DNA of 64,000 bases, from NCBI GenBank assembly GCA_030829985.1, contig JAURNW010000011.1, positions 79,086-143,085 on the forward strand, read 5' to 3'. Positions 49,334 to 63,843 of this stretch are shown here, in pieces. The stretch is from Gammaproteobacteria bacterium (GTDB lineage: Bacteria; Pseudomonadota; Gammaproteobacteria; Eutrophobiales; Eutrophobiaceae). A program made the translations under genes and the position numbers. Each line of letters begins with the position of its first letter. Position 1 is the first letter of the stretch. The notes beneath the pieces were generated by a model. The model had not been told where the DNA came from. It saw nothing but the letters and a program-made list of their open reading frames with translations, and ran no database searches.

Positions 49334-50539
49334 TTAATTTCCTACTGCCAGATTATTCGGAGTACTATCTTTTTCATTTAATTTGTCAAATGTATGTTGA
49401 GCGATCATTAATTCTTCATTGGTGGGAATAACACAAACTTTGATAGAACTGTTGCGCGTAGATATAACAGGACTATTTTCATCATTGGCTCGATTATCTA
49501 TTTCAACACCTAACCAGGTAAGTTCAGCACAAATACGTTTACGAATTTCATTCGCGTTTTCACCTATACCGGCAGTGAAGACCAGCCCATCAAGACCTTT
49601 TAACAATGCTACTAAAGAACCCACTTCCCTTATTATACGGTGCACATATAAATCTATGGCTTGCTTCGCAGTTAATTCCGGGCTTTTTAATAATAAAGAC
49701 ATATCGTTACTAATTTTCGACACACCCAATAAACCGGATTTCTTATAGAGCAGGTCGGTTAGTTGTTGTGCACTCATATTCTTTTCTTCTAATAGAAAAA
49801 GAATAACACCAGCATCAATCGAACCGCACCTTGTACCCATCATCAATCCATCGAGCGCGCTAAACCCCATAGTGCTATCAATACTTCGGCATTGATCGAG
49901 TGCACACAGGCTGGAACCATTGCCTAAGTGTGCAACAATAACTTTACCGGAAGATAATTCAGGTTCAGTTTGTTTTAATCTAGTCGCAATATATTCATAA
50001 GACAATCCATGAAAACCGTAACGCCGGATACCTTGTTCATAATATTCATCGGGCAAAGCAAATTGATTGTTTGGTTTTTCATGGCTCGAATGGAAGGCGG
50101 TATCAAAACAGGCCACCTGTGGTATTGCTTTATTAATCTGTTTCAAAGATTCAATAGCAGCAAGATTATAAGCCTGATGCAATGGAGCAAGTGGTTCCAG
50201 TTTTTTCAACTGTTCTAAAATACCGGGCGTAACGACTGTTGGCGAAAAAAAATGATTACCGCCATGTACAACACGATGGCCAACAAACAAATCCTTATTA
50301 CTATCGAGTTTTGACTCTAACCAATCAAATAAATATTTCAACGCCGAAAGGTGATCCGCTGTTTTCAATAAATCAGTAAATTTCTGGTTTTTAGAACTGC
50401 TTACAGTAAAACAAGCGTTTGATCCTAAACCTGATATTTGTCCTTTATACAAATCAGTCAGCGCACCTTCCTGTTCATCGAAAAGACTAAACTTGATGCT
50501 CGACGAACCACTATTCAGAACCAGGATCTGACAAATCAT
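49334..50539 (-). CDS. ackA: acetate (short-chain acid) kinase
   Basis: ILVLNSGSSSIKFSLF N-terminus and the DTAFH and EELMIA-type motifs of acetokinases. The ATG at 50539 overlaps the upstream pta stop (ATGA). Confidence 0.85.
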   Translation of the reverse strand: MICQILVLNSGSSSIKFSLFDEQEGALTDLYKGQISGLGSNACFTVSSSKNQKFTDLLKTADHLSALKYLFDWLESKLDSNKDLFVGHRVVHGGNHFFSPTVVTPGILEQLKKLEPLAPLHQAYNLAAIESLKQINKAIPQVACFDTAFHSSHEKPNNQFALPDEYYEQGIRRYGFHGLSYEYIATRLKQTEPELSSGKVIVAHLGNGSSLCALDQCRSIDSTMGFSALDGLMMGTRCGSIDAGVILFLLEEKNMSAQQLTDLLYKKSGLLGVSKISNDMSLLLKSPELTAKQAIDLYVHRIIREVGSLVALLKGLDGLVFTAGIGENANEIRKRICAELTWLGVEIDNRANDENSPVISTRNSSIKVCVIPTNEELMIAQHTFDKLNEKDSTPNNLAVGN

Positions 50540-51939
50540 ATCAATAACTTTTTCTGATGATGAGCATAAAGGATGGCAAGAGAACAAGAAGCCATCCGTT
50601 CAATGGCAGAATCAGCTCGACTGGTCAGAATGACCGGCAATCGCGCCCCCATGACAATACCGGAGCCTTGTGCATCCGCTAAGTAAGTTAACTGCTTGGC
50701 TAGTATATTTGCTGCTTCAAGATTGGGAGCAACCAGGATATCTGCCTGGCCAGCAACTTCAGAAACAATCCCTTTGGCTTTTGTTGCCATCAGTGAGACA
50801 GCATTATCGAATGCTAATGGTCCATCCAAAAGACCGCCTGTAATCTGCCCGCGATCTGCCATCTTGCATAGCGCGGCTGCTATCAAAGTAGAATTGATAT
50901 CTGTAGTAATCGTTTCGACTGCTGATAATAAAGCAACCTTTGGCAACTCTATGCCTAATGCATTAGCAAGATCGATTGCATTTTGTACAATATCACGCAT
51001 AACTTCGAGTGTAGGCGCGATATTGATAGCTGCATCGGTGACCAATAAAGGTCTTGGGTAAGTCGGCACATCAAAAGCAAAAACGTGACTAATTCGTCTC
51101 TCAGAACGGATGCCTTTATCTTTATGTACTACCGCTCTCATTAGTTCATCTGTATGCAAGCTACCTTTCATCAAGGCCTCAACTTTGCCCGCGCGCGCTA
51201 ACTCAACAGCTTTTTCTGCAGCTTCATGACTATGTTCAACATCAATCATCGGAATATCTTTAATATCCAACCCAAACTCTTCAGCGATTGATAAAATTTT
51301 ATCTTTCGGCCCAATCAATGTAGGTAATATTAAATTTGTCTCTGCAGCTTCTACTGCGCCGCGAAGAGCATATTCGCTACAAGGGTGTACAACTGCTGTG
51401 GGCAATGGATCTAAAAGATGGGTGGCATCAAATAATTCTCTTAAGTGACCACGTTCAGCGATACGAACATTTGGCAATACAAACCTGGGGCGTTTTATCT
51501 TTTTTACCGGAGCAATGACATCAGCCTCACCTTCGATAACAACTTTGCCTTGCTGATTAGTACACAAACAATCGAAGACAACCCTGTTATTACCAGGTTC
51601 TTTGTTTTTAGCTGTGACCTTCACCGTTAGCACATCACCCAGAACAACCGGTCGTTTAAAGCGTAACGACTGTCCAAGATATATTGTGCCCGGACCAGGC
51701 AAAATAGTGCCAAGGACAGTTGAGATCAAAGCACCACCCCAAAGACCATGTGCAATCACTTCATGAAACATGCTGTCTTTAGCGTATTCTTCATCCAGAT
51801 GCGCCGGATTAACATCACCACTCATGACGGCGAACAACTGGATATCTTTTTCAGTTAAGCGGCGATCTATACTGGCAGACTCGCCAATTTCAATTTCATC
51901 GAAACAGCGATTAACTATCAAGTCCTGTGTTTTACTCAC
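50536..51939 (-). CDS. bifunctional MaoC-like (R)-hydratase / phosphate acyltransferase (PTA/PTB) fusion
   Basis: The N-terminal roughly 150 aa have a hot-dog (MaoC) fold (NPAHLDEEYAKDSMFHEVIAHGL). The C-terminal roughly 300 aa form a PTA_PTB domain. Confidence 0.8.
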   Translation of the reverse strand: MSKTQDLIVNRCFDEIEIGESASIDRRLTEKDIQLFAVMSGDVNPAHLDEEYAKDSMFHEVIAHGLWGGALISTVLGTILPGPGTIYLGQSLRFKRPVVLGDVLTVKVTAKNKEPGNNRVVFDCLCTNQQGKVVIEGEADVIAPVKKIKRPRFVLPNVRIAERGHLRELFDATHLLDPLPTAVVHPCSEYALRGAVEAAETNLILPTLIGPKDKILSIAEEFGLDIKDIPMIDVEHSHEAAEKAVELARAGKVEALMKGSLHTDELMRAVVHKDKGIRSERRISHVFAFDVPTYPRPLLVTDAAINIAPTLEVMRDIVQNAIDLANALGIELPKVALLSAVETITTDINSTLIAAALCKMADRGQITGGLLDGPLAFDNAVSLMATKAKGIVSEVAGQADILVAPNLEAANILAKQLTYLADAQGSGIVMGARLPVILTSRADSAIERMASCSLAILYAHHQKKLLI

Positions 51940-52284: not shown

Positions 52285-53016
52285 TCATTTTGATTCGAAG
52301 ACGACTGACTTCCAATTTTGATAAAACAATCTGGCTGTCGTATTAAATTCAGTCATATATTCAAGCGCTTCTTTTTGCAGCTTCTCTGTTGCATTAACAC
52401 CCAATACATTTTCCAGTGATTTTTTATAAGCAGGAATAGCGCTCCAATCAGAAATAGTTGTTTGAATAATTTCCTGATGATACTGCATGCTAAAAACCTG
52501 TGAGCCTAATGACAGTGATTGAATACCACATTGATCTGATTCAGCTAAAATTTCCATTTCATCCGGTGCAGTTATTACTTCAGCGGCATGCCATTGCAAA
52601 CACGACATCGATTCTGGCAAGTTTTCATAAAAAGGACTGTGTTTGCCCGCTTCTGTTTTTTGAATTTGTAATACACCTACTTCCGGCACAGCAGCAGGAC
52701 TAACCTCACCACCCAAAGCATCGGCTAGTAGTTGATGACCCAGACAAATTCCAACATAGGGCATTTTTAACTCATTTACTGCCTTTCTAATCGCATCCTT
52801 TTCCTCAATAAGCCAGGGATATTTTTCTTCCTCCCAAACATCCATAGGCCCACCCATAACCCACAAGGCATCAAAATCTGATAACTCAGGAATTGAGTCT
52901 CCCTCATCCAGTTCCACCACATGCCATTTAATCCCGTCTTCTTTAAAATAATCACGGAAGATACCCGGGTGCTCGATACGGAGGTGTTGGAAAACTAATA
53001 TGTGTTCAATATTCAT
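52285..53016 (-). CDS. class-I glutamine amidotransferase-like protein
   Basis: GATase1 fold with the nucleophile Cys in VGICLGHQLL and the LQWH His. Last gene of the long minus-strand operon. Confidence 0.6.
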   Translation of the reverse strand: MNIEHILVFQHLRIEHPGIFRDYFKEDGIKWHVVELDEGDSIPELSDFDALWVMGGPMDVWEEEKYPWLIEEKDAIRKAVNELKMPYVGICLGHQLLADALGGEVSPAAVPEVGVLQIQKTEAGKHSPFYENLPESMSCLQWHAAEVITAPDEMEILAESDQCGIQSLSLGSQVFSMQYHQEIIQTTISDWSAIPAYKKSLENVLGVNATEKLQKEALEYMTEFNTTARLFYQNWKSVVFESK

Positions 53017-53018
53017 AT

Positions 53019-53840
53019 TCAGTGAATCAGCGTTGTTAACACTTTACGGAAATCTGCGTGCTCTGGCCGCCACCGGGTTCGCGTCATTGTAATTGTATTG
53101 TCACAGCGGCGTCCGCTGCCCCGTGCATTATCATTTTGATCAAACTCAGGTAAGGCTTGTTTTAATTGTTGTGCCAGAAAGGAATAATAATCATAGCGTT
53201 TAACCGGATTACCATCACAAGCAAGTTCGCGAAATTCAGGCTGATCCATTTCGCTAACACGTTTTATTAATTGAGCACCATCATCAACATGAATCAGATT
53301 AAGCCAGCCATCAGGATCACCACTGATTGCCTCACCATTAATTATTCCGTTTTTTCCTATGACGCGATCCGGACCATAGATACCGGCAAAACGAACGACG
53401 ACTCCATTTTTGATATTAGCCAACCAGTCCTGCTCAATATTGTATTGTCTTTCTGCTCGTTCACTATCGATATTAACTTCACTATCTGCATCTACTATTC
53501 GATCAACATTGCCGTACACAACGGTTGATGAAACCAGAATGGCTCTTTTAATGGTGAATTGATTTAGCCGTTGAATAAAATCGGTAAACACAGTGCGATC
53601 GACTTGCCTGGGTGTTACCAGAAAATAAATCAGAAGTTCTTGTTTGTCAGGCAGGTTAGCCAGATTAGACCAGCTCTCTTTATTATTTATGTCGAGAGTT
53701 AATGCTTGAACGTTTTTCGCACTGCCAGCTTCATATATTTTCCGGGCTCTGTTTGTGACATAGCATTGTTGCCCACTCAAAAAACCAAGCAATCGTTTTC
53801 CTAAATAGCCGCAACCGATTATTAAACTAATAGATTCCAT
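53019..53840 (-). CDS. NAD(P)-binding epimerase/dehydratase-like (atypical SDR) protein
   Basis: Rossmann GxxGxxG at the N-terminus (IIGCGYLGKRL). 273 aa. The stop is 2 nt from the downstream GATase. Confidence 0.55.
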   Translation of the reverse strand: MESISLIIGCGYLGKRLLGFLSGQQCYVTNRARKIYEAGSAKNVQALTLDINNKESWSNLANLPDKQELLIYFLVTPRQVDRTVFTDFIQRLNQFTIKRAILVSSTVVYGNVDRIVDADSEVNIDSERAERQYNIEQDWLANIKNGVVVRFAGIYGPDRVIGKNGIINGEAISGDPDGWLNLIHVDDGAQLIKRVSEMDQPEFRELACDGNPVKRYDYYSFLAQQLKQALPEFDQNDNARGSGRRCDNTITMTRTRWRPEHADFRKVLTTLIH

Positions 53841-53899
53841 ATAATTTAAATATTAAAAGAGGGGATTATCACATGGTAGACAGGACTAAAGGAAATGAA

Positions 53900-54658
53900 C
53901 TATTTGTTAGCTGTCAATGTCTGTTGTTCCACATTCTTGTATTTAATAACAACATTAAAATTATCACCCTTGTAATCACGCATATTAGAAACACCTTCAA
54001 ATATGCGTAAGGCAGGCTTGTTATTATCATAGTAGAGCTTCAATGTGCCTGCGATGACGCGCACAAAGAAACTATTCGGCTCGATATTTATTAGTCTAAG
54101 TGTACGGCCATTCTTATCAACAACAGTCTCCTGATAGATTCTAAAGTTCATAAAATCCAGCATGCTTGGCACCAGGAATTCTCGTTTGAATTTTTTACCT
54201 GCTTTTAATTCATCCCAATGGGCAATAATAAAATTATCAAAACCGGCATCACTGATCGAATCCTCTTTATATTTTATTAATGCTTCTTTTTGCGTTTCAG
54301 CTTGCGATTCACTAAATATGACTTCATATTTATTTTCTGTATAACGTGTTTTTTCTTTATGGCCTGTTTTGATATTTTCTAAAGAAAACTCGGGCATAAA
54401 TTGACTAGTACTAAAATCAGCCGTTTTTTTAGCAATTATATTTTCATCAATATCTTTATAAATAACCTCAGATCGTAAAAGAACGCCGTCATTGAATGTT
54501 TCATAATGATTTTCCGTATAAAGTAAATTATCGGTATCACGGTCGTAGGCATAACCCACCCGCGTCGGACTATCACCCGCAAAAACCGGAAGGACCATCA
54601 AAGACAGGTATATTAAAAATACTATTTTCTGCATCAGGTTTATTTTATTGTCGTGCAC
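53900..54658 (-). CDS. secreted hypothetical protein
   Basis: Signal peptide IVFLIYLSLMVLPVFAG, 252 aa, Lys/Asp-rich with no recognisable motif. Overlaps the upstream small membrane-protein gene by 19 nt. Confidence 0.4.
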   Translation of the reverse strand: MHDNKINLMQKIVFLIYLSLMVLPVFAGDSPTRVGYAYDRDTDNLLYTENHYETFNDGVLLRSEVIYKDIDENIIAKKTADFSTSQFMPEFSLENIKTGHKEKTRYTENKYEVIFSESQAETQKEALIKYKEDSISDAGFDNFIIAHWDELKAGKKFKREFLVPSMLDFMNFRIYQETVVDKNGRTLRLINIEPNSFFVRVIAGTLKLYYDNNKPALRIFEGVSNMRDYKGDNFNVVIKYKNVEQQTLTANK

Positions 54659-55005
54659 TCACCTAGCCAGAACTTCATCATATTCCCTTCTGCGTCATAA
54701 ACTGCCTTGATGATATACACACAGGACAACATATTGCCGAGCAACAGCACCAGTAATGACCAAGCAAAAGCGACGACTTTATTGTCTTCTCTCCACATAA
54801 TCCAGAATGAAAAAAGTAAAAGGCCTAAATATAAATCGACTAGTGTCACCATTCCCCAGGCCATATCAACCAATGCAGCTCCTTCTTTGAAAAAATCACC
54901 ATAGATCAATGCATAAAAGATAATCGACAACATAATTAACAGGCCACCACAAGCAATTACAATCGGTATTGATACGGCCTTATACTTTCTAGAAATGGCG
55001 ATCAT
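54640..55005 (-). CDS. small integral membrane protein (three TM)
   Basis: 121 aa with three hydrophobic helices. Overlaps the DUF1295 gene by 4 nt. Confidence 0.4.
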   Translation of the reverse strand: MIAISRKYKAVSIPIVIACGGLLIMLSIIFYALIYGDFFKEGAALVDMAWGMVTLVDLYLGLLLFSFWIMWREDNKVVAFAWSLLVLLLGNMLSCVYIIKAVYDAEGNMMKFWLGECTTIK

Positions 55006-55808
55006 TTTAATTCCTTTGGCGGTAACGGAAAAAACATACTCGTTGTTTTTTGATATTCCCTATAGGTATCGCCTCGGCTTCGTATTGATTGTTGCTCCGT
55101 ATAGGGAACGCCGGTTATCCGAGTAATAAAAACATAGATGACTACTAACCCGGTCCAGGTTAACCACCAGTAATCGCTACCGCAACCTATTAAAACAAAT
55201 GCCCACCATTGCAACCATTCAAAGAAATAATTTGGATGCCTTGAATAACGCCAAAAACCTTTATCACAAACAAGTCCTTTATTAGCAGAGTTCATTCTGA
55301 AACGATGGAGTTGTTGATCACTTAGTAATTCGCCAGCGATTGCAATGCACCAGATCAGAACACCTAAAATATCTAACAACTCGAGGCCAGTATCAGAGTT
55401 GCGTGACGCAGCCCAGAACGGCAGGGCAAAGAGTAATGTCCAACTGGCTTGAACCTGAAAAAAAACAAACATAACCGGCTGGGCATACTTGCCACAATAC
55501 TGCCGCATGTAACGATAACGCCCATCTTCGACTTCATTTATGACCCGATTATATAAATAAAAACCCAGTCGAAATCCCCAGAAAATTGCCATTGCAATTA
55601 TTAGCCATTGCCGCGCTTCATTCGGAATATCATCTGCCAGTATCAACCAAACACCCACTAACGGCGTTAAGAATGACCAGGCCACATCAACTATGCCTGC
55701 GTTTTCAGTTTTATATTGCACCATCCATAACAACAACATAACAACCGCACTGAAAGCCCATGCATATAAAAAGATTGAAGTAAGTGCCATATTAATTACC
55801 CGTTCCAT
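55002..55808 (-). CDS. DUF1295-family membrane protein (steroid-5-alpha-reductase/ICMT-like fold)
   Basis: Polytopic 268-aa protein with the C-terminal RHPNYFFEWLQWWAF motif typical of DUF1295/ICMT-like proteins. This family recurs in CFA-synthase-like lipid clusters. Confidence 0.7.
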   Translation of the reverse strand: MERVINMALTSIFLYAWAFSAVVMLLLWMVQYKTENAGIVDVAWSFLTPLVGVWLILADDIPNEARQWLIIAMAIFWGFRLGFYLYNRVINEVEDGRYRYMRQYCGKYAQPVMFVFFQVQASWTLLFALPFWAASRNSDTGLELLDILGVLIWCIAIAGELLSDQQLHRFRMNSANKGLVCDKGFWRYSRHPNYFFEWLQWWAFVLIGCGSDYWWLTWTGLVVIYVFITRITGVPYTEQQSIRSRGDTYREYQKTTSMFFPLPPKELK

Positions 55809-56340
55809 TTACCAAAATCTGGTTTTTAGATGCTTGATGTTTGTATATTAGTTCAGAAATAAATATCAATAGCGGCATCACACAGGTCCACATAAATCCA
55901 ATAATAATCAGGGAAGAATTATCAGAAAGATTGATAGCGCCTAGTCTATCTCCTGCTGCATAGGCAAGAGGTCCTGCTATGCATGCCATTAAAGCGGATA
56001 ATAAATAGCGCCCTTTAAGCCAGGAGAGAGAGTAATTAATTGTTGCCGCAAGGTTAATCCAGAGACAGACCATCCACATCGGCGAAGGACCACCGAATAA
56101 AGCTGGCTCGGGAAATACAATTACGTCCTTATAGACCAGAAACGAATCAAGTAAATAACCAATTACAGCAGCACTAATTAATACTTCAAATTCGAATACG
56201 CGTTTATCACCAATGATATAGAGATGTATGAAAACCCATAATAATGTGTAGATCACTCCAACATAAGGCAGTCCATTCGCTGCCGAGATGATCGTCACAA
56301 ACCATGCTATTTGAAACAGTATGAAATTACTGACATTCAT
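55792..56340 (-). CDS. integral membrane protein (five TM) of the lipid cluster
   Basis: 182 aa and hydrophobic throughout. Overlaps flanking genes, indicating operon membership. Confidence 0.45.
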   Translation of the reverse strand: MNVSNFILFQIAWFVTIISAANGLPYVGVIYTLLWVFIHLYIIGDKRVFEFEVLISAAVIGYLLDSFLVYKDVIVFPEPALFGGPSPMWMVCLWINLAATINYSLSWLKGRYLLSALMACIAGPLAYAAGDRLGAINLSDNSSLIIIGFMWTCVMPLLIFISELIYKHQASKNQILVNGTGN

Positions 56341-56341
56341 T

Positions 56342-57622
56342 TTATAAATGCACCGATGAGTCCGCTCTCGTTAACGCTTCTCTTCCATAAGCCGGTTTAT
56401 TCATTAGCATTTGCACGACACCAGTATAACATTCGATGAATCCGGCTTCGCAGTACGCCAGGTAATATTCCCATAAGTGAATAAAATCATCACCATAACC
56501 ATACTGCTTAACATCATCCAGTCTAGCCATGAAGTTTTCCCGCCAAATCTTTAATGTCTTCGCATAGTGAAGACCAAAACCTTCGATGTTGTTAACCCGC
56601 AAATCTGAAGACTCAGTGATGGCATTGAGCATTGCTGTCAATGAAGGAACACAACTGCCTGGAAAAACAAACTGCTGTATAAAATCCGAGGTTTTAAGAT
56701 ATTGCGTATACCGCTGATCCGGCATCGTGATCGCCTGAACTAACATTTGACCGTCATTTTTTAACAAGGATGCGCAACTGGAAAAATAGGCAGGCAAATA
56801 TTCATGGCCAACAGCTTCTATCATTTCTATAGAAACAAGTTTGTCGAATTTTCCTGTCAAATCACGATAGTCACATAGTTTGATATCTATCCGATCATCC
56901 AAACCCTGTTCTTGTATGCGTTGTTTGGCAAGCCCATATTGTTCTTTAGAAATCGTTATTGTAGTGACGTGACAACCATAATTTTTTGCCGCATGAATGG
57001 AGAAGCTGCCCCAACCACTACCGATCTCAATTAAACGGTGATGCGGTTTTAAATCCAGCTTGCGGCAAATTCGGTCCAGTTTTTCAATTGATGCATCCTC
57101 AAGAGTTGATTGTTCATTCAGAAAAAAACCGGATGAGTAGGTCATGGTTTTGTCGAGGAACAACTGGAACATGTCATTACCAAGATCATAGTGCGCATGA
57201 ATATTCTCCTGACTACCCTGACGCGTGTTACTTCTGGCTTTATGTCTACGTCGTAACCACCAGTTGCCTAGTGAAGCCAACCCTGATTCAAGCTCGTCAG
57301 TATGGTCAAGATTCCTGACCATCATTTGAAACAACCCAACCAGATTGTCACAGCGCCAATAGCCGTCTCGATAGGCGCTTGCGGCGCCGTTACTACCCGC
57401 CAACAAAACGTCTATATAAAAACGCATGTCCTTAATTTCAATTGTGATATCTGCTGGCAGGGCTGAATCCGTTTGCCAATGGTCAAACGGGTCATTAATG
57501 GCGATACAACCCGATGGCAGGCCGCTGATTTTTTTTCTTATCAGTTTTTTAGCCAGCAATAGAAACGAGCTTGCGAATGACGTCATCTTCAAGTCATTTT
57601 GTTTTAGCGTTGTCGATCTCAT
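56342..57622 (-). CDS. cyclopropane-fatty-acyl-phospholipid-synthase-family SAM-dependent methyltransferase
   Basis: SAM-binding LIEIGSGWGSF motif and CFA-synthase-like N- and C-terminal regions. Start taken at the ATG overlapping the upstream stop (ATGA). Confidence 0.8.
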   Translation of the reverse strand: MRSTTLKQNDLKMTSFASSFLLLAKKLIRKKISGLPSGCIAINDPFDHWQTDSALPADITIEIKDMRFYIDVLLAGSNGAASAYRDGYWRCDNLVGLFQMMVRNLDHTDELESGLASLGNWWLRRRHKARSNTRQGSQENIHAHYDLGNDMFQLFLDKTMTYSSGFFLNEQSTLEDASIEKLDRICRKLDLKPHHRLIEIGSGWGSFSIHAAKNYGCHVTTITISKEQYGLAKQRIQEQGLDDRIDIKLCDYRDLTGKFDKLVSIEMIEAVGHEYLPAYFSSCASLLKNDGQMLVQAITMPDQRYTQYLKTSDFIQQFVFPGSCVPSLTAMLNAITESSDLRVNNIEGFGLHYAKTLKIWRENFMARLDDVKQYGYGDDFIHLWEYYLAYCEAGFIECYTGVVQMLMNKPAYGREALTRADSSVHL

Positions 57623-58383
57623 CGATTTGTCTCTTGTGTTAAATGTTTTGGGTGAGAATAAAATGGTGTTTTTTTGAACCAGAGCTTCATGGCTTGCCAA
57701 TAAATCGCCGCAATAACCTTCATCGTCATTACGGGATACATAAATAAAACTCGAGCAAGTTGGAGTCGATTGATGGGTTGTCTGGTTAAATTCATCGTTG
57801 CATTGAAAACTTTTTTACCATTTTCAAAACTATTCATATTAACTTTCAGTACTTCATCAGGCTTCGGCAAATGCCATTCATAGGATTGACCCATATCCAT
57901 AAACGGCGAAACATGAAACGCCTTTGCAAAAGAATAGGACGATTTGCCTTCTTGTATTTCATTACTGTCAAGCACATAACAGTGCGTCTCACCCCATGGC
58001 GTGTTATGGACTTCGGCAACAATATATTCGAGCTCGATATCTTCATCATTCCAACAATAGTAAAAACTAACCGGATTCATGCAGTAACCAAAATAACGCA
58101 AATGTGTTAGTAATCGTATTGGTCCTGAATGGTCCTTACCTGTTTCCTGTTTGATGATCTGACGTACACTTTCATCAAGAGCAACGCCTGCATCACCAGC
58201 ATGATCCTTACGTCTGAACCAGGCAAATGCAAAACGCCTTGCCGACCAGAATAAATAGGGATCAAACAACTTTGGTAACTCAGCCAGGTCCAGGTACATC
58301 ATGTACAATTTGTATTTAAAATAATGCTTATGCGGCATGAAGCGACCATGCGAAACCCGGCCTTCATAGATATAACTATTCAT
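57619..58383 (-). CDS. DUF1365-family protein
   Basis: About 255 aa, YIYEGRVSHGRFMPHKHYFKYKLYMMYLDLAELP, typical of DUF1365 proteins encoded next to CFA-synthase-like and FAD-oxidoreductase genes. The start overlaps the upstream stop. Confidence 0.7.
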   Translation of the reverse strand: MNSYIYEGRVSHGRFMPHKHYFKYKLYMMYLDLAELPKLFDPYLFWSARRFAFAWFRRKDHAGDAGVALDESVRQIIKQETGKDHSGPIRLLTHLRYFGYCMNPVSFYYCWNDEDIELEYIVAEVHNTPWGETHCYVLDSNEIQEGKSSYSFAKAFHVSPFMDMGQSYEWHLPKPDEVLKVNMNSFENGKKVFNATMNLTRQPINRLQLARVLFMYPVMTMKVIAAIYWQAMKLWFKKTPFYSHPKHLTQETNR

Positions 58384-59633
58384 GCGGCCAACGCCTGATC
58401 GTAAGCAGCGCATACTGCAATGGCACTACGGACACCATCCTCATGAAAACCATAGCCCCAATAGGCACCACAATATGAAATGCCTCGACGTCGAATCAGT
58501 TTATGGTGATCTGCTTGTACCGCATCTCTACCTGGTTGAAACACCGGATGATGGTAATGTATCCGTCGTATAACTTTGTATGGATCAATCTGCTCAGCCT
58601 GATTAAGTGAAACACTATAGGTGTTATCACTCTCAATCCCCTGCAACATATTCATGTTATAGGTAACTGCCACATGATTATTTTCAGTCGCCGGAATACG
58701 ATAGTTCCAACTGGCCCAGGTTCGCTTATTTTTGGGCAACACATTAGTGTCTGTATGCAGTATCGCTTCGTTATCTTGATACTCAAACAGATCCAACATG
58801 CTGATTTCCTCAGCTTCAATATTGCTAACCAGTCGACGACTCGTATCAGCATGGGTAGCAAGAACGACTTCATCAAATGTTTCTATTCTGCCATCTGCCG
58901 TAGTTAGCTCAACATGATTATGCTTTCTGGTTACATTGGTAACCCCGCAATTCAGGTTAATCTTTTTGGCAAAATCTCTCGTAAGTGGCTTGATATATTG
59001 ATAGGAACCACCTACAACAGTTCTCCATTGCGGACGGTGGTTAACTTGTAACATGCAATGGTTATCCAGAAACTCGAGTACAAACTTGATTGGGAATTGA
59101 CGAAACTTTGCCGCCGGACATGACCATAAAGAAGCGCCTAATGGCACTAGATAATATTCAATAAAGCTGGTGGAGTATTTATTTTTTTCGGCATATTCAG
59201 CCACTGTAGTTTTATCATTCATGCCATTATGAAGTTCTGTCGGAGCATTATCATTAAAGCGCATGATTTCTTTTAGCATGCGCCAGAATGTTGGACTAAA
59301 TATATTTTTTCGCTGACTAAAAACGCGATTAAGATCCGTTCCATTGTATTCCAGCAAAGTCTTTTCACAATGCACGCTGAAGCTCATGTCTGACTCACGA
59401 CTTTCGACGTCCAGCATTTCAAACAATTGACACAAGCATGGATAATTTTGTTCATTGAAAACAATAAAACCCGTATCAACAGGTATTGTTCTTTCGTCTT
59501 CATTAACAATAACAGTATTAGTGTGCCCACCAATATAATGATTCGCTTCGAAGACTTGAATCTCATGTTCACGATTCAGCAAATAGGCTGCTGTTAAACC
59601 CGAAATACCAGTACCAACAATTGCGATTTTCAT
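58380..59633 (-). CDS. FAD/NAD(P)-binding oxidoreductase (amine-oxidase/phytoene-desaturase-like)
   Basis: N-terminal dinucleotide-binding motif KIAIVGTGISGLTAAYLL...VFEANHYIGGHT. 417 aa. Confidence 0.8.
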   Translation of the reverse strand: MKIAIVGTGISGLTAAYLLNREHEIQVFEANHYIGGHTNTVIVNEDERTIPVDTGFIVFNEQNYPCLCQLFEMLDVESRESDMSFSVHCEKTLLEYNGTDLNRVFSQRKNIFSPTFWRMLKEIMRFNDNAPTELHNGMNDKTTVAEYAEKNKYSTSFIEYYLVPLGASLWSCPAAKFRQFPIKFVLEFLDNHCMLQVNHRPQWRTVVGGSYQYIKPLTRDFAKKINLNCGVTNVTRKHNHVELTTADGRIETFDEVVLATHADTSRRLVSNIEAEEISMLDLFEYQDNEAILHTDTNVLPKNKRTWASWNYRIPATENNHVAVTYNMNMLQGIESDNTYSVSLNQAEQIDPYKVIRRIHYHHPVFQPGRDAVQADHHKLIRRRGISYCGAYWGYGFHEDGVRSAIAVCAAYDQALAA

Positions 59634-60571
59634 TGCTGTTGACCTTCTTTCAGTATATGCAAGGGCACCGGTTTTAAATCTTTTGCCAACCCAAATGTTG
59701 CGAACATTTTTATTAAAATAAAACTAACATCAAGTTCACCACGATAAAAACCTTGTCGGGTTGCTGCCGGGTAACGATGGTGATTGTTATGCCAGCCTTC
59801 GCCCAGCGTTAATAAAGCCAGCCAGACATTATTACGACTGTCATCACCAGTATTAAAACGGCGCTTGCCAAATACATGCGCCAGCGAGTTTATGGTATAG
59901 GTGGCATGATAAAGAACGACCGTTGAAACAAAACCACCCCAGAACAGTAATTGCAAGCCGTTCGTATTTAACCCAGGATGATTAATAGAAAGAAAGTTTC
60001 CCAGAAGAAAACAACAACAAAACATTAAAAGGAAGGGTATCCAGTCAACTCTTTCCAATAATTTTAATTCAGGGTAACGCAACAGGTCTTTGATACGATC
60101 ATCGTGTAAAGGAAAATTTCCACGTCGCAAGAACCAGAGAAGATGACTATTAAGAAACCCGTTTTTTGGAGAATGCGGATCAGTATGTGTATCTGAGTTG
60201 ATATGATGGCCGCGATGATGACTTGCCCACCAAAGTGGTCCACGTTGTCCAGCCGTACAACCGGCAACTGCCATTAAAAATTGTATCGGGCGTGAAACGC
60301 TGTAGCTGCGATGTGAAAAATACCGATGATAGAATGCGGTAATGAAAAACATCCGACTGAAATAAAGAAAAACAGCCAGAATAACTGCTGCCCAACTCAC
60401 ACCAACATAGAGCACGCCAAGACATGCTATATGTATCATGATAAATACAATCAGCCTGAAACTATCAATCTTTTGTTTCTGTTGTTCATTTAATCCCTCA
60501 TATATTGATGACTCATTAAACAACCAACAACATAGTTTCTGAAACAAGGATAATTTATTTTGTGCTTTCAA
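59630..60571 (-). CDS. membrane fatty-acid (acyl-lipid/acyl-CoA) desaturase
   Basis: Three His boxes (HRYFSH, HHRGHH, HNNHH) and hydrophobic TM segments. First gene of the operon. Confidence 0.8.
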   Translation of the reverse strand: MKAQNKLSLFQKLCCWLFNESSIYEGLNEQQKQKIDSFRLIVFIMIHIACLGVLYVGVSWAAVILAVFLYFSRMFFITAFYHRYFSHRSYSVSRPIQFLMAVAGCTAGQRGPLWWASHHRGHHINSDTHTDPHSPKNGFLNSHLLWFLRRGNFPLHDDRIKDLLRYPELKLLERVDWIPFLLMFCCCFLLGNFLSINHPGLNTNGLQLLFWGGFVSTVVLYHATYTINSLAHVFGKRRFNTGDDSRNNVWLALLTLGEGWHNNHHRYPAATRQGFYRGELDVSFILIKMFATFGLAKDLKPVPLHILKEGQQQ

Positions 60572-60641: not shown

Positions 60642-60660
60642 TGTGAAGATTATGTGAAGA
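60642..60660. promoter_or_regulatory. direct repeat TGTGAAGA-N3-TGTGAAGA (11-bp register) upstream of the desaturase operon
   Basis: Two perfect 8-mers start 11 bp apart, 70-90 bp upstream of the desaturase start codon and immediately downstream of the histidine-kinase gene. This is the geometry of an OmpR-family response-regulator site. Confidence 0.4.
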
Positions 60661-60677: not shown

Positions 60678-61994
60678 TCAGTAGATAGCGGCATTGGAAA
60701 ATTCGACCGTAACCTTGGTCCCATAACCGAGTTGAGTATCGATATCGATAGGCCAATTAAACCGATCCGAAAGCATCTTGACGATGGTTAATCCTACACC
60801 ATAGCCACCACGACGCTTATTCTTGCCTTGTTTAAACGGCTTAAACATTTGCTCAACATCATCTTTATGCATGCCGATACCACTGTCTTCAATAATCAAA
60901 TTATCACCCGAAATAAGAATATTGACATTACCCTCATCAGTATAAGAGAACGCATTACGGATAAGGTTACCGATCAGGACTGACAGAACTTTGTCGGATC
61001 CATTTACAAACAATTTATTCTTTTCTTCAAAACCTACCTTTACTGGTTTGTTCAACAGAAGATCGTTTGTTCTATCTATTTCTTCAGAAACAACATCATT
61101 GATGCAAACCGGTTCTGACGATAGTTCCCTGTCTGATTCTCTCGCAAGTATTAACAACGCTTCAATCAATTCCTCCATATCCGCTGCATTTTTCTTTATA
61201 CGTAGTAATGGCCTGATTTGTGCCTCACTCAGTGAGTCATCCTCCAATAAAAAATCAGAGGCAATTTTTATAACCGTAATAGGACTGCGTAATTCATGAC
61301 TCGCATCACGCGTGAAATTTCGTTCTCGAACTACAAATGAGACTATTCTATCTGATAGATCCGATAATGCCTGCGCTAAAACAGCAACTTCCTGATCAAC
61401 ATTGTCAGGTAAAGCCGATTTTAATTTTTCAGAAAATTCTTCACTACTTGGATCGAGTTCTTCTAATGTTTTCGCTAATTTTATGATTGGTGATACCGCT
61501 TGTGACAATAAACGATATGAAACCCAACCAGATAAATAAATAACGATAAGAAAGCCGGCGAGTGGGAAGATACCAAAAAACAGAGCCAACTCACTGACCT
61601 GCTGACCATCAAATTCCAGATAGAGCGTATGACCATCGTGCTCTGATACATGCACGATATAAAAATCTGAATGACTATCGCTTAACTTATGCAGTCCGGG
61701 ATTCAGGTTAAAAATTTCTGTGGGGATTATTTTATCTCCCGGATTTAAATAACCATTCAAATTATAAGTATCAGGCCGCGGTGCATTTTTATCGGTATCA
61801 AATCGGGCCCAATAATGTGATGCTTCATCATCCAGAGCGCGTTGAATCAGGATATCGCCTATTACGAACCGGGCCGCATAAACACCCAACAATGCAACCA
61901 CACTGATTAAGACAGCCTGTAAAATAAAGGCGTTTAATAAACGTTGGTTAATTCCTGTATCAGTCTTCATCAGGATCGACCAGCCGGAAGCCAC
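60678..61994 (-). CDS. sensor histidine kinase
   Basis: Two TM segments flank a periplasmic region. The H-box is SHELRSPIT, and the N, G1 (DSGIGM) and G2 (GYGVGLT) boxes are present. Confidence 0.85.
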   Translation of the reverse strand: MASGWSILMKTDTGINQRLLNAFILQAVLISVVALLGVYAARFVIGDILIQRALDDEASHYWARFDTDKNAPRPDTYNLNGYLNPGDKIIPTEIFNLNPGLHKLSDSHSDFYIVHVSEHDGHTLYLEFDGQQVSELALFFGIFPLAGFLIVIYLSGWVSYRLLSQAVSPIIKLAKTLEELDPSSEEFSEKLKSALPDNVDQEVAVLAQALSDLSDRIVSFVVRERNFTRDASHELRSPITVIKIASDFLLEDDSLSEAQIRPLLRIKKNAADMEELIEALLILARESDRELSSEPVCINDVVSEEIDRTNDLLLNKPVKVGFEEKNKLFVNGSDKVLSVLIGNLIRNAFSYTDEGNVNILISGDNLIIEDSGIGMHKDDVEQMFKPFKQGKNKRRGGYGVGLTIVKMLSDRFNWPIDIDTQLGYGTKVTVEFSNAAIY

Positions 61995-62661
61995 TGTTTT
62001 GCATGGTTTCCATCAATGGTTTGCTAAACGGTTTGTCGATTGATTTTCTCAGATTGTACATGTGGCTTCGCAGGGTATCACTGTCGGGCAAAATATCTCC
62101 CCAGATTTGTCGTTCGATCTCACGTCTGCTAACTACACGTGGCGAAGCATGCATCAATATTTTTAATATTTTTAAACCTATGGGGGTTAGCTTGATGGGT
62201 TTATTAGCCCGTGTAACCTCCAACGTTCCTGAGTCGAATATCAAATCAGCAACCTGCAACTTTTCAGGGCTCAGCAATCCACGCTGTCTTCGTATTAATG
62301 CCCTTAGTCTCGCCTCCAGTTCTTTAATCTCGAATGGCTTAACCAGATAATCATCGGCGCCCGCATCTAACCCGGCAATTTTATCCTGTAATGTATCTCT
62401 AGCCGTCAAGATTAATATCGGTACGGCACGTTTCGCCTGATTGCGTATTTTTTCCAATACGGCGATACCGTCCATTCCCGGCAGCATTTGATCAAGGATA
62501 ATCGCATCGTAATCATTGCTTACGGCAAGATGTAAACCGGTAATGCCATCGGCGGCATGGTCCATCACGTAATCGGAACGTTCCATGTATTCACATATCA
62601 TTTCTGCGATATCTTGATGGTCTTCAATCAACAATAGATGACCTTGAGTGTTAGTAGGCAT
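61960..62661 (-). CDS. OmpR-family DNA-binding response regulator
   Basis: Receiver domain (LLIEDHQDIAEM...IILDQMLPGMDG) and a C-terminal winged-helix trans_reg_C domain. Confidence 0.85.
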   Translation of the reverse strand: MPTNTQGHLLLIEDHQDIAEMICEYMERSDYVMDHAADGITGLHLAVSNDYDAIILDQMLPGMDGIAVLEKIRNQAKRAVPILILTARDTLQDKIAGLDAGADDYLVKPFEIKELEARLRALIRRQRGLLSPEKLQVADLIFDSGTLEVTRANKPIKLTPIGLKILKILMHASPRVVSRREIERQIWGDILPDSDTLRSHMYNLRKSIDKPFSKPLMETMQNSGFRLVDPDED

Positions 62662-63036
62662 GCTCAGACCCTGAGGATTAAATATTTAGCATTACACAGC
62701 AACGGATGTGATGACTACGTGAAATTGCATAATTTTCTTGCTGAAGGCCTATAGATTCGTCGCTAAAGCTATTCATGGGGTAAATTGAAGCGTATAAGAG
62801 CAATTAGTAAACTCGAATTAACCGCTCATGTGGGCAAACCTCTTTAATTCAAGCTTATTCTTTACCATTTTGTGTAATACAGCATAAGTGTTTCAAGGAA
62901 GTAAAGCGGTGTTTGGGTGATTTCAGTTATCTAGTGAATTTATCAAGTAGCGGTATGACCAGTTTATTAGGTATACTTTTGCCTCTGGAATCGAGACACT
63001 CCGGAATTATCGGACAATTACCCTTGGGGATGAGTA

Positions 63037-63843
63037 ATGAGTAAAGAACAAGATAAAATATTTTTCAGAAATTTTTCACTGGCACTAGGCGTCATCGCCG
63101 TCATGATGGTGGTATTTTTTGTCGTCGCACAATTTGCTGCTTCAGATGATGAGGCAGAAGCTAAAATGCGTGCCGTAAAAGTAGCTGAGATTACTAAACC
63201 GGTAGGACAAGTTACTGCCGTTGGTGAAGAGGTAGAAATGGCTGCTGAAGAAATGACCGCCTCTACAGCTGGGGAAGCAAGTGGCGATGTAGGTAAAACA
63301 GTTTATGACGGACTCTGTGTTAATTGTCACGGTATCCCGGCAATGGCATCCATGATTCCACAAACGGGTGACGCGGCTGCTTGGGCTGCCCGCGTAGAAA
63401 AGGGCAAGGATACGCTCTATGACCATGCCATTAATGGTTTTGTCGGAGAGATGGGAATGATGCCTGCCAGAGGCAGCAACCCTAAACTGACAGATGACGA
63501 GGTCAAAGCCGCCGTAGATCACATGTTAGCTCAACTTGATGCAACGCCTGCCGCTGAATCAACTGAAATCGCGGCTGCTGATAGTGATGCTGGCAAAACT
63601 GTTTATGATGGCTTATGTGTAAACTGCCATGGTATAGCGGCATTAGCCTCTATGATTCCACAAACGGGGGATGCAACTGCATGGGGTCCACGCATCGAGA
63701 AAGGCATGGATACTCTGTATGACCATGCAATCAATGGTTTTGTTGGGGAGTTAGGGATGATGCCGGGCAAAGGCGGCAACATAAAACTCAGCGATGATGA
63801 AGTTAAAGCTGCCGTAGATTACATGGTGAACCAGACTAAATAA
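63037..63843 (+). CDS. membrane-anchored diheme c-type cytochrome (tandem c5-like domains)
   Basis: N-terminal TM anchor and two roughly 85%-identical modules, each with CVNCHG haem-binding sites (KTVYDGLCVNCHGI...). Confidence 0.8.
   Translation: MSKEQDKIFFRNFSLALGVIAVMMVVFFVVAQFAASDDEAEAKMRAVKVAEITKPVGQVTAVGEEVEMAAEEMTASTAGEASGDVGKTVYDGLCVNCHGIPAMASMIPQTGDAAAWAARVEKGKDTLYDHAINGFVGEMGMMPARGSNPKLTDDEVKAAVDHMLAQLDATPAAESTEIAAADSDAGKTVYDGLCVNCHGIAALASMIPQTGDATAWGPRIEKGMDTLYDHAINGFVGELGMMPGKGGNIKLSDDEVKAAVDYMVNQTK

Follow-up and report, generated by a model that had tools for sequence, protein, structure and literature searches.

A putative methyl-furan-type lipid-modification operon that appears to be under OmpR-type two-component control in a marine gammaproteobacterium

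Results

Operon organization

Ten tightly packed, co-directional genes (g1 to g10) in the genome of an uncultured marine gammaproteobacterium probably form an operon that modifies membrane lipids in the manner of bacterial methyl-furan fatty acid pathways, with an arrangement specific to the lineage. The operon appears, from its neighborhood and a recurring predicted box, to be under its own OmpR-type two-component system. Judging from gene order among relatives, the conserved unit is the response regulator and histidine kinase genes together with g1 to g8. The stretch of DNA analyzed (64 kb; hereafter the window) carries all ten originally predicted minus-strand genes as open reading frames (10/10 at 52285-60571), and the same ten are annotated on the same MAG contig in the public record GCA_040265035.1 (Table 1).

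From the coordinates and public gene starts, neighbors from g1 to g8 overlap or lie no more than 5 nt apart, with 4-nt overlaps of the ATGA type at g1/g2, g2/g3, g3/g4 and g6/g7. Gaps of 59 nt and 2 nt follow g8 and g9, respectively, 345 nt lie downstream of g10, and the kinase gene is separated from g1 by 106 nt. Promoter and terminator scans, themselves uninformative, revealed no convincing terminator within the operon. The starts of g3 (254 aa) and g4 (426 aa) were corrected, and the lengths of homologs indicate that the g8 product most likely has 244 aa. Crude hydropathy was consistent with the membrane and secreted assignments. Pfam searches with each reading frame recovered the expected DUF1365, DUF1295, CMAS and Amino_oxidase families, and gave family names to two proteins previously described only by their five (g5, DUF2878) and three (g7, DUF1475) transmembrane helices.

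Table 1. Features of the operon and its upstream region, in window coordinates.
Feature	Position	Strand	Assignment	Basis or remark
Box 1	62707..62722	-	Direct repeat TCACGTAGTCATCACA; predicted autoregulatory site	45 nt upstream of response-regulator start codon
Response regulator	61960..62661	-	OmpR/PhoB family, 233 aa	Pfam Response_reg, Trans_reg_C
Sensor histidine kinase	60678..61994	-	430-438 aa	Pfam HisKA, HATPase_c
Box 2	60642..60657	-	Direct repeat TCACATAATCTTCACA; predicted operon promoter	Kinase-g1 gap, 70 nt upstream of g1 start
g1	59630..60571	-	Integral-membrane di-iron desaturase, stearoyl-CoA (delta-9 type) family	Pfam FA_desaturase
g2	58380..59633	-	FAD-dependent amine-oxidase/phytoene-desaturase-like oxidoreductase, UfaD-type	Pfam Amino_oxidase, NAD_binding_8
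g3	57619..58383	-	DUF1365 protein, UfaO-type	Pfam DUF1365, 282 bits
g4	56342..57622	-	CFA-synthase-family SAM methyltransferase, cluster-linked UfaM-like clade	Pfam CMAS, 290 bits
g5	55792..56340	-	DUF2878 membrane protein	Pfam DUF2878, 128 bits
g6	55002..55808	-	DUF1295 membrane protein, steroid-5-alpha-reductase/ICMT-like superfamily	Pfam DUF1295, 210 bits
g7	54640..55005	-	Small 3-TM protein	Pfam DUF1475, 29.9 bits (cutoff 22.3)
g8	53900..54634	-	Secreted orphan protein	Predicted LolA-like lipid-carrier beta fold
g9	53019..53840	-	Atypical NAD(P)-binding epimerase/dehydratase-like protein	Variable tail gene
g10	52285..53016	-	Stand-alone class-I glutamine amidotransferase-like protein	Variable tail gene; Pfam GATase

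Core triad, desaturase and accessory genes

The order FAD oxidoreductase-DUF1365-methylase is colinear with the contiguous ufaD-ufaO-ufaM genes of Rhodopseudomonas palustris (RPA2569-2571), which yield methyl-furan fatty acids and encode an FAD enzyme, a DUF1365 protein and a CFA-synthase-like methylase, respectively (Lemke et al. 2020, PMC7380195). The families, this gene order and the published work agree with the original prediction that the triad is of the UfaM/UfaD/UfaO type, and the ECF sigma control that it mentions for Rhodobacter corresponds to sigmaE-ChrR in R. sphaeroides (PMC7380195). The g2 product is 34-41% identical to the FAD proteins of sigmaE-ChrR clusters in Pseudoalteromonas, Mesorhizobium, Legionella and Paracoccus; the corresponding value for g3 and the DUF1365 proteins of cultured sigmaE-type clusters is only 24-38%, with Paracoccus at 24%. 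Ahead of the triad, g1 carries the His boxes HRYFSH, HHRGHH and HNNHH and aligns with mouse SCD1 (4ymk; E=2e-35 across residues 39-302), from which neither regiospecificity nor substrate can be read.

Behind the triad, g5 occupies a position also seen in Legionella and Pseudoalteromonas clusters, where DUF2878 likewise comes after the methylase. The g6 product has, besides DUF1295, a weaker match to Steroid_dh and weak matches to the ERG4/ERG24 reductase families; DUF1295 also resembles ICMT/PEMT methyltransferases. The g8 product matches no Pfam family, begins with a signal-like helix, and belongs to an orphan periplasmic family of 47 members. For g9, the Pfam Epimerase match is sub-threshold and PDB 3gpi is matched at E=4.5e-12; the classical SDR genes that sigmaE clusters carry are not its homologs. 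The Cys/His-x-Glu triad of g10 is intact, with GICLGHQ and YHQE motifs in the PDB alignment.

We examined co-conservation across 80 related loci, which represent at least six phyla. DUF1365 (80/80), the FAD gene (73/80) and the methylase (69/80) are nearly universal, followed by DUF1295 (48/80) and DUF2878 (39/80), in line with the predicted co-conservation of the neighbors; DUF1475 is present in 6/80. An SCD-type desaturase occurs in 39/80, always on the strand of the FAD gene and directly upstream of it in 37, the other two having the order FAD-Des-DUF1365. Extension of the triad by a desaturase and further genes is less special than the original prediction implied, since the desaturase, DUF2878 and DUF1295 are widespread and Stenotrophomonas maltophilia has a comparable cluster (PMC11832516). 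The whole array from response regulator to g8, including DUF1475, is found in three relatives (L097-L099), with g8 at 46-49% identity. Of the proposed ten-gene unit, g1 to g8 are conserved, together with the regulator and kinase genes; the SDR-like g9 and the amidotransferase-like g10 are kept, among the 80 loci, only in the nearest relative (L005), and L097-L099 have an alpha/beta hydrolase or nothing in place of g9.

The g4 methylase

By its sequence, g4 is not a plain Cfa and belongs with the cluster-linked, UfaM-like methylases. It scores below all three NCBIfam Cfa equivalog cutoffs (282/600, 271/400 and 246/650 bits). A methylase tree, built by neighbor joining only, grouped g4, the cluster-linked methylases and Halomonas UfaM in one clade (89.5% bootstrap), with a tighter gammaproteobacterial clade containing g4 and Halomonas UfaM (96.5%) and a separate clade of canonical Cfa (87.5%); the Halomonas methylase sequence was stitched by hand from an OCR-damaged supplement. 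By tblastn, g4 matched Halomonas ufaM at 42% identity (154 bits) and Halomonas cfa at 27% (89 bits). The bicarbonate ligand H266 of Cfa is replaced by Gln in g4 and Halomonas UfaM, as in 63/63 related cluster methylases and 4/4 cultured cluster methylases, whereas every Cfa compared has His. The motif Q-A-I-T-x-x-D-Q-R is common to g4 and Halomonas UfaM. Relative to E. coli Cfa (PDB 6bqc), g4 shares the CMAS fold family, the SAM-binding core and the bicarbonate-site residues E239, I268 and Y317, but has Ser at the position of C139, and E. coli cfa lacks the operon context of g4. The original prediction had named a methyltransferase within the canonical Cfa clade, with neighbors not co-conserved, as evidence against itself; g4 instead lies outside that clade, beside the functionally tested Halomonas UfaM, and its neighbors are co-conserved.

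Two-component system and direct-repeat box

The operon had been proposed to sit under a two-component system, and the upstream OmpR-type regulator and kinase genes were confirmed. Neither product reaches an NCBIfam cutoff for a named equivalog. Hydropathy places kinase transmembrane helices at residues 23-41 and 136-154, around a periplasmic stretch of ~95 aa. Regulator orthologs (55-83% identity) adjoin lipid genes in six of the related loci (L005, L006, L007, L010, L013 and L015), and L097-L099 have regulator genes at the corresponding position. The regulator is also 43% identical to one beside an Acinetobacter plasmid cluster of the order desaturase-FAD-DUF1365-methylase-DUF1295.

Control is supported by a conserved predicted cis element, TCACR-N6-TCACR. 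It has just two matches in the window (0.47 expected), both at predicted promoters and on the gene strand, and a TATACA -10-like hexamer comes after box 2. The box recurs at equivalent places in about 10 orthologous loci. In the six loci above and in L097 and L098, 31-52 nt separate it from the orthologous regulator gene downstream, and L066 likewise has it ahead of its regulator gene. Equivalent copies precede the first of the lipid genes in L007 and L011, as do copies with a single mismatch in L006, L097 and L099; L005 and L098 have at this position a degenerate box or none that was detected. On the Acinetobacter plasmid, the same box precedes a lipocalin-desaturase operon.

Proposed pathway

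Homology and synteny suggest a five-step scheme. The kinase would phosphorylate the regulator, which would bind the 11-bp-period direct repeat both in its own promoter and in the one ahead of g1. The O2-dependent desaturase g1 would place a cis double bond in a saturated acyl chain of a membrane lipid and so supply the mono-unsaturated substrate. Using SAM, g4 would convert the cis-alkene not to a cyclopropane but to a methyl-branched trans-alkene, g2 would introduce a second double bond to give a conjugated methyl-diene, and g3 would insert an oxygen atom from O2 and close the furan ring. The predicted product is a mono-methyl rather than a dimethyl furan fatty acid, because a second (FufM-like) methylase is absent from the operon. 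DUF2878, DUF1295, DUF1475 and g8 may be conserved accessories that handle, further reduce or traffic the modified lipid, which is a guess, and g9 and g10 may be co-transcribed passengers specific to the genus-level lineage.

Discussion

[quoted passage not shown] Cluster position alone is therefore no proof of UfaM function. Compared by description, the window operon shares the three families with R. sphaeroides and R. palustris, has the gene order of the latter, and continues with a DUF2878-sized gene where R. sphaeroides has RSP1088. It differs in its OmpR-type system in place of sigmaE-ChrR, in the desaturase ahead of the triad and the DUF1295, DUF1475 and LolA-like proteins behind it, and, from R. 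sphaeroides, in lacking a classical SDR gene (RSP1087 type) and an adjacent photolyase gene; identity to alphaproteobacterial cluster proteins is just 24-40%. Halomonas sp. YLGW01 also has a contiguous gammaproteobacterial triad, of which the methylase alone was functionally tested, ufaM producing 11-methyl-12-octadecenoate in E. coli; the description there includes neither a desaturase nor a two-component system nor accessory genes (PMC12089945).

The nine-gene, desaturase-containing cluster smlt2375-smlt2367 of S. maltophilia belongs to a sigmaEc-ChrR regulon, is co-induced 165-700-fold as one unit, and alters superoxide tolerance when deleted; its authors made no link to furan fatty acids (PMC11832516). 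By description, it likewise begins with an acyl-CoA-type desaturase, followed by an FAD oxidoreductase, a hypothetical protein and a CFA-family methylase, and includes two inner-membrane proteins and one periplasmic protein. However, an ECF sigma/anti-sigma pair drives it, it has a second CFA-family methylase and a lipocalin that are missing here, and it is without DUF1475 and g8-type proteins. A two-component system encoded beside its target, the membrane fatty-acid desaturase gene Des, is known in Bacillus subtilis. There, DesR is NarL-type and DesK is a multi-pass thermosensor without a periplasmic domain, whereas the window encodes an OmpR-type regulator and a kinase with two transmembrane helices and a periplasmic loop, and the predicted regulated unit is a lipid-modification operon of eight to ten genes.

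That g4 might be an ordinary cyclopropane fatty acid synthase with functionally unrelated chance neighbors is suggested by its best PDB matches, which are cyclopropane synthases, by its Pfam family, and by the database name of its relatives ([quoted passage not shown]). This is very improbable: the missed cutoffs, the tree and the His-to-Gln replacement throughout the clade contradict it, as do neighbors that are co-conserved across phyla and joined by translationally coupled junctions. A less remote though still unlikely reading is that the same families modify acyl chains to a non-furan end product, with a DUF1365 role other than furan closure. The end product might be a conjugated methyl-diene, or else a saturated or mono-unsaturated fatty acid with a mid-chain methyl branch; in the latter case DUF1295 would serve as enoyl reductase for the methyl-alkene. 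The reductase-like matches and frequent retention of DUF1295 and the divergence of g3 favor this reading, and Nitrospira, planctomycetes and Desulfobacterota, all represented among the related loci, are known for fatty acids with a mid-chain methyl branch. Several R. sphaeroides cluster genes also have no role in furan synthesis, so extended clusters do more than the three-step pathway. On the other hand, no genes accompany the methylase more constantly than those for the FAD enzyme and the DUF1365 protein, and in two tested organisms these enzymes act after methylation to give the diene and the furan (PMC7380195). Many loci have the triad but no DUF1295, and the likeness of DUF1295 to ICMT/PEMT methyltransferases makes a reductase role uncertain. 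A furan product remains the favored reading.

As to regulation, we consider it improbable that g1-g10 escape the adjacent two-component system and answer to some other factor, for example an ECF sigma whose gene lies elsewhere, with the box autoregulatory only or its second copy coincidental. Most of the 80 loci have no regulator gene within 10 kb, cultured clusters use sigmaE-ChrR, and in L005 and L098 the copy ahead of the lipid genes is degenerate or escaped detection. Yet the two copies are the sole matches in 64 kb, the second copy recurs in relatives, neither sigmaE nor ChrR is encoded in the window, and ChrR was found in none of the 80 loci (0/80). In L010, L013 and L015 the kinase gene lies only 10-30 nt from the desaturase gene, and therefore all genes there must share the boxed promoter. 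The Acinetobacter plasmid, with the same regulator type and box, also argues for control by the adjacent system.

Rather than a new kind of system, the operon appears to be a variation on one that is already known and widespread; it begins with a desaturase and is apparently under two-component control instead of the usual stress sigma factor. Particular to it, as read from sequence comparison, are the OmpR-type system with its predicted box, the DUF1475 protein and the putative LolA-like orphan.

Gene content of the locus

Ten open reading frames (g1 to g10) follow one another on the minus strand of the window and are also called as genes in the public record of the same contig, MAG GCA_040265035.1. 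This bears out the ten-gene operon of the original prediction, with the starts of g3, g4 and g8 corrected. Junctions from g1 to g8 are overlaps or gaps of at most 5 nt (a 4-nt overlap for g2/g3); g8 and g9 are 59 nt apart and g9 and g10 2 nt apart, with 106 nt before g1 and 345 nt after g10. Searches with Pfam confirmed the DUF1365, DUF1295, CMAS (CFA-synthase family) and Amino_oxidase assignments, and the two proteins previously described by their five and three transmembrane segments are present and can now be named as DUF2878 (g5) and DUF1475 (g7). An exact-match look-up of the long DUF1365 ORF returned no match; the called g3 begins 10 codons further in. Among the collected genomes, the closest relative at species level is a Thiotrichaceae MAG (locus L005), whose DUF1365 protein is 73% identical. 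Promoter and terminator consensus scans, and RNA folding after g10, gave nothing beyond shuffled expectation.

Beyond the 345-nt gap lie genes for a MaoC-dehydratase/phosphate-acetyltransferase (PTA) fusion, acetate kinase and a FabI-like enoyl reductase, which look like ordinary synteny because purK, purE and the FabI-like gene also follow in locus L097. On either side of the wider region is a di-haem cytochrome c4-like gene; one of the two is divergent and just upstream of the response regulator gene.

Features of the window and of related loci, with Pfam assignments of the operon genes
Feature	Coordinates	Strand	Assignment
Operon, g1-g10	52285-60571	-	ten successive ORFs
g1		-	FA_desaturase
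g2		-	Amino_oxidase / NAD_binding_8
g3		-	DUF1365, 282 bits, model positions 1-234 of 235
g4		-	CMAS, 290 bits, E=3e-86
g5		-	DUF2878
g6		-	DUF1295; weak Steroid_dh match
g7		-	DUF1475
g8		-	no Pfam family
g9		-	Epimerase match below threshold only
g10		-	GATase class I
Response regulator and histidine kinase		-	upstream of g1, same strand; kinase HisKA/HATPase
Box 1, before response regulator gene	62707-62722	-	TCACR-N6-TCACR
Box 2, before g1	60642-60657	-	TCACR-N6-TCACR
MaoC-PTA fusion, acetate kinase, FabI-like gene	48561-51939	-	
CPD-photolyase homolog	45231-46658	-	
Cytochrome c4-like gene	43407-44015	+	di-haem
Cytochrome c4-like gene	63037-63843	+	di-haem
Cluster on Acinetobacter plasmid (L100)	8265-18340		
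MT2-like reading frame of L100	14072-15169		
MT2 (second methylase) of L087	3432-4460		

A core related to furan fatty acid enzymes

Furan fatty acids are radical-scavenging membrane lipids, and to our knowledge the bacterial pathway has been worked out only in two alphaproteobacteria, together with one methylase from Halomonas. In R. sphaeroides, the CFA-synthase-like methylase UfaM (RSP2144, encoded elsewhere) yields 11-methyl-12-trans-18:1, the FAD protein UfaD (RSP1091) yields the 10t,12t methyl-diene, and the DUF1365 protein UfaO (RSP1090) closes the furan using O2; three further genes of that operon, RSP1089 (402 aa), RSP1088 (186 aa) and RSP1087 (245 aa), are dispensable (PMC7380195). 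The contiguous R. palustris genes RPA2571 (ufaD), RPA2570 (ufaO) and RPA2569 (ufaM) are necessary and sufficient, and FufM, 26% identical to UfaM, puts on a second methyl group (PMC7380195). The triad is also consecutive in Halomonas sp. YLGW01, whose ufaM, expressed in E. coli, gives 11-methyl-12-octadecenoate (PMC12089945). The window's order FAD-DUF1365-CMAS-DUF2878 is colinear with these clusters and the families are the same, which upholds the proposal that the core triad is of the UfaM/UfaD/UfaO type.

For the methylase, the alternative was a plain cyclopropane fatty acid synthase (Cfa). Scores of g4 fall under all three NCBIfam cyclopropane-synthase equivalog cutoffs (282/600, 271/400 and 246/650 bits). 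It is 42% identical to Halomonas YLGW01 UfaM (154 bits) versus 27% to Halomonas Cfa (89 bits), both references being taken from Table S1 of PMC12089945, where they carry OCR frameshifts, and stitched by hand. The other reference sequences were Cfa from E. coli, Klebsiella and Ralstonia, stand-alone methylases, the methylases of 80 related loci, and cluster-linked methylases from Legionella, Pseudoalteromonas, and Mesorhizobium and Paracoccus plasmids; the functionally tested UfaM compared was that of Halomonas. In a neighbor-joining tree (41 sequences, 364 columns, 200 bootstraps), all cluster-linked methylases, Halomonas UfaM and g4 formed one clade (89.5% bootstrap), as did the g4-type, Pseudoalteromonas, Legionella and Halomonas UfaM sequences (96.5%). 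Canonical Cfa formed a separate clade (87.5%), and a third paralog, MT2, stood apart at 100%.

The bicarbonate ligands of Cfa matter for cyclopropanation. Those of the E. coli enzyme, C139/E239/H266/I268/Y317, correspond to S/E/Q/I/Y in g4. Glutamine replaces H266 in 63 of 63 g4-type sequences, 4 of 4 methylases of cultured clusters and Halomonas UfaM (LQAITIRDQRF in the latter versus VQAITMPDQRY in g4); His266 is retained in all Cfa, stand-alone and MT2 sequences compared. The equivalog scores, the ligand changes including H266 to Gln, and the tree position together rule out a plain Cfa, as originally predicted. By its CMAS domain and its greater closeness to the tested Halomonas UfaM than to Cfa, g4 is a predicted UfaM-type fatty-acyl methylase.

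The stand-alone CMAS methylases (about 440 aa; L090, L091, L092 and L096) are a separate, widespread family that keeps His266. Their gene directly follows an ECF-type sigma factor gene on Rhodobacterales plasmids, and fabI on a Halomonas plasmid (L096).

The remaining enzymes are likewise assigned by family. Mouse SCD1 aligns with g1 over residues 39-302 (E=2e-35) with the three His boxes in register, and g1 stays under the cutoff of the NCBIfam DesA equivalog (84/400 bits); its His boxes and homology to the four-TM core place it as a predicted membrane desaturase of the stearoyl-CoA (delta-9 type) family. The g2 protein, 34-41% identical to the FAD genes of cultured clusters, is a putative UfaD-type enzyme, being an amine-oxidase/phytoene-desaturase-like FAD protein encoded next to a DUF1365 gene, an adjacency seen in 73 of the 80 loci. 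A DUF1365 domain spanning the whole protein makes g3 a putative UfaO-type protein. Its fold model is a calycin-like barrel, with invariant His and Cys residues; the DUF1365 proteins of cultured sigmaE-type clusters are just 24-38% identical to it. The DUF1365 family comprises 6270 representatives (50% identity level, E<=1e-3). One 674-aa protein (P0313) has its DUF1365 region at residues 419-672, which suggests a natural fusion, possibly with an FAD enzyme.

Conservation of the gene cluster

Species-representative genomes were scanned with a DUF1365 alignment, and neighbors were counted by homology mapping in the 80 related loci, all at least 48% identical. These come from Gammaproteobacteria, Betaproteobacteria, Nitrospirota, Planctomycetota, Acidobacteriota, Gemmatimonadota, Desulfobacterota and others. 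The FAD oxidoreductase is present in 73/80 and the methylase in 69/80, and most loci lacking either end at contig edges. Other neighbors are DUF1295 (48/80), the desaturase, DUF2878 and MT2 (39/80 each), photolyase (16/80, within 10 kb), lipocalin (15/80), response regulator (10/80), histidine kinase (9/80), DUF1475 (6/80) and a sigma factor (3/80); ChrR is found in 0/80, and g8, g9 and g10 in one locus each, L005 only. Where the desaturase gene occurs, it shares the strand of the FAD gene in 39/39 loci and is directly upstream of it in 37/39. By these counts, the triad constitutes a recurrent module together with the desaturase and the membrane proteins DUF2878 and DUF1295.

MT2 (for example in L009, L015, L019, L041, L056 and L087) is about 25% identical to g4, has His at Cfa position 266 and Phe at 268, and lies mostly beside DUF1295, usually with DUF2878 near. 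Given this identity and its pairing with DUF1295 in Mesorhizobium, MT2 is probably a FufM-type second methylase. No MT2 homolog was found in the 64-kb window. Two kinds of DUF1295 were observed: one g6-like (45-79% identical), downstream of the methylase and DUF2878, the other MT2-associated, upstream and 27-35% identical.

In cultured organisms, the classical order is sigmaE-ChrR, photolyase, SDR, FAD, DUF1365, CFA-family methylase and DUF2878, and some clusters add DUF1295, chalcone-isomerase-like or DUF3833 genes. A literature search for a furan cluster linked to a desaturase or a two-component system had a sole match, in S. maltophilia (PMC11832516). There, the nine genes smlt2375-2367 encode a periplasmic hypothetical protein, an acyl-CoA desaturase, an FAD oxidoreductase, a hypothetical protein, CfaS2, two inner-membrane hypothetical proteins, CfaS1 and a lipocalin; they are up 165-700-fold in a chrR mutant, dependent on sigmaEc, and their deletion reverts that mutant's raised menadione tolerance and ceftazidime susceptibility (PMC11832516). 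The authors interpreted this as membrane lipid modification, with furan fatty acids unmentioned (PMC11832516). The desaturase-extended form has thus already been seen experimentally. Singlet oxygen induces CFA-synthase-like, DUF1365 and DUF1295 genes together in Chlamydomonas (PMC4067076), which fits a functional link among these families.

A cultured counterpart lies on the Acinetobacter pseudolwoffii plasmid NZ_CP084301.1 (L100). Its order is lipocalin, acyl-CoA desaturase (52% identical to g1), FAD oxidoreductase (39%), DUF1365 protein (32%), Gln-type methylase (45%), DUF1295 protein (39%), an MT2-like stretch and a kinase (26%), with a regulator, 43% identical to that of the window, on the opposite strand. 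No annotation covers the MT2-like reading frame, which could be a pseudogene. Plasmids like this one are found in several species of Acinetobacter.

The operon tail

The g8 family comprises 47 proteins among 5.8 billion. Three relatives, just 46-49% identical to g8, lie in the same array of response regulator, histidine kinase, desaturase, FAD, DUF1365, CMAS, DUF2878, DUF1295, DUF1475 and g8, followed by an alpha/beta hydrolase (two cases) or no gene. Because the array is the same at such divergence and the tails differ, the two regulatory genes and g1 to g8 are a conserved unit of this lineage, with g9 and g10 variable. Of the ten genes first described as one lipid-modification operon, g9 and g10, conserved no further than the nearest relative, were rejected as integral members of the pathway.

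Sequence searches of Pfam and PDB with g8 gave no match, and the informative match came from a fold search alone. This LolA-like model makes g8 a candidate periplasmic lipid carrier. Descent from the lipocalin, chalcone-isomerase-like or DUF3833 proteins that are periplasmic partners elsewhere was rejected (hhalign probabilities <1%). The g9 protein resembles an uncharacterized NAD-dependent epimerase/dehydratase, 3gpi (E=4.5e-12), and is distinct from the classical SDR that sigmaE clusters carry; in g10, a stand-alone GATase1, the Cys and His-x-Glu triad is intact.

Regulation

The gap between the kinase gene and g1 holds TCACATAATCTTCACA, and the region before the response regulator gene holds TCACGTAGTCATCACA. 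These are the sole two matches to the direct repeat TCACR-N6-TCACR (the box) in the 64 kb, both on the gene strand, with 0.47 expected by chance. In L005, L006, L007, L010, L013, L015, L097 and L098, a box precedes the orthologous regulator gene by 31-52 nt, and L066 also has one upstream of its regulator gene; a TAATAT-like hexamer usually follows the regulator-gene box after about 17 nt. L007 and L011 have a second box before the first lipid gene, as do L006, L097 and L099 with one mismatch. The kinase gene abuts the desaturase gene in L010, L013 and L015, and therefore one boxed promoter must serve all genes there. On the Acinetobacter plasmid, boxes precede the lipocalin gene and the regulator's operon, and a one-mismatch box precedes the desaturase gene.

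Direct repeats of about 11-bp period over the -35 region are the usual OmpR/PhoB binding mode. A receiver plus winged-helix regulator, a HisKA kinase and repeats of that period as predicted sites at the target promoters point to OmpR/PhoB-type control, in agreement with the two-component system first proposed for this operon. Neither the regulator nor the kinase reached a named NCBIfam equivalog.

No homolog of sigmaE, ChrR or the classical SDR was found in the 64-kb window. The locus is not a singlet-oxygen cluster of the sigmaE-ChrR type: it has no adjacent sigma factor, ChrR or photolyase, and g9 is not a classical SDR. Photolyase is a classical neighbor of these lipid genes in sigmaE-ChrR clusters. 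A CPD-photolyase homolog (NCBIfam PRK10674, 380 bits, short of the 506-bit cutoff) is encoded some 5.6 kb past g10, with purK/purE, the FabI-like gene, acetate kinase and the MaoC-PTA fusion between it and the operon.

Proposed pathway

With homology and synteny as the basis of every enzymatic step, the reading we find most likely, with moderate confidence, is that the operon serves to form a mono-methyl furan fatty acid on membrane lipids and is governed by the two-component system next to it. The desaturase would act first. The UfaM-type g4 would then produce a methyl-branched trans-alkene (11-methyl-12-trans-18:1) rather than a cyclopropane, the UfaD-type g2 would convert the methyl-monoene to the conjugated 10t,12t methyl-diene, and the UfaO-type g3 would close the furan ring by O2-dependent oxygen insertion, with DUF2878, DUF1295, DUF1475 and g8 as conserved accessories.

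A possible alternative is that the end product of DUF1295-containing clusters is a different one, for instance a methyl-branched or reduced species. The furan reading is weakened by the divergence of g3 from cultured DUF1365 proteins, and by the dispensability in R. sphaeroides of the cluster-encoded paralog RSP1089; the families and order of the triad, the methylase placement and the co-conservation indicate that the original furan/methylated fatty acid reading is essentially right. It seems unlikely that the desaturase-primed, two-component-controlled clusters are a distinct pathway, more than a re-wired furan fatty acid operon. If they were, cells could use the desaturase to build the heterocyclic lipid directly out of saturated chains whenever it is needed. 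Further processing of the product, such as a reduction, would fall to DUF1295 and DUF1475, and the LolA-like g8 would ferry the modified lipid over the periplasm to the outer membrane. The kinase would then respond to a membrane or oxidant signal that has no relation to singlet oxygen.

Returning to the furan reading, the core is assigned to the furan fatty acid system, and the addition of a desaturase and DUF membrane proteins to it is a common arrangement that earlier work has described. The locus reveals no new kind of system. Particular here are the probable two-component control with a recognizable predicted box, DUF1475, the LolA-like protein and the variable two-gene tail. Gln in place of Cfa His266 is a signature by which the cluster-linked, UfaM-like methylases can be told apart from the cyclopropane synthases in this comparison, and a cultured, plasmid-borne version is now at hand for experiments, along with a predicted regulator site. 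The enzyme triad is spread across many uncultured phyla, and a dedicated desaturase gene often precedes it; a cell so equipped would not need unsaturated chains to be present beforehand. On Acinetobacter plasmids and in one lineage of gammaproteobacteria, a two-component system appears to have taken over its control from an ECF sigma factor.
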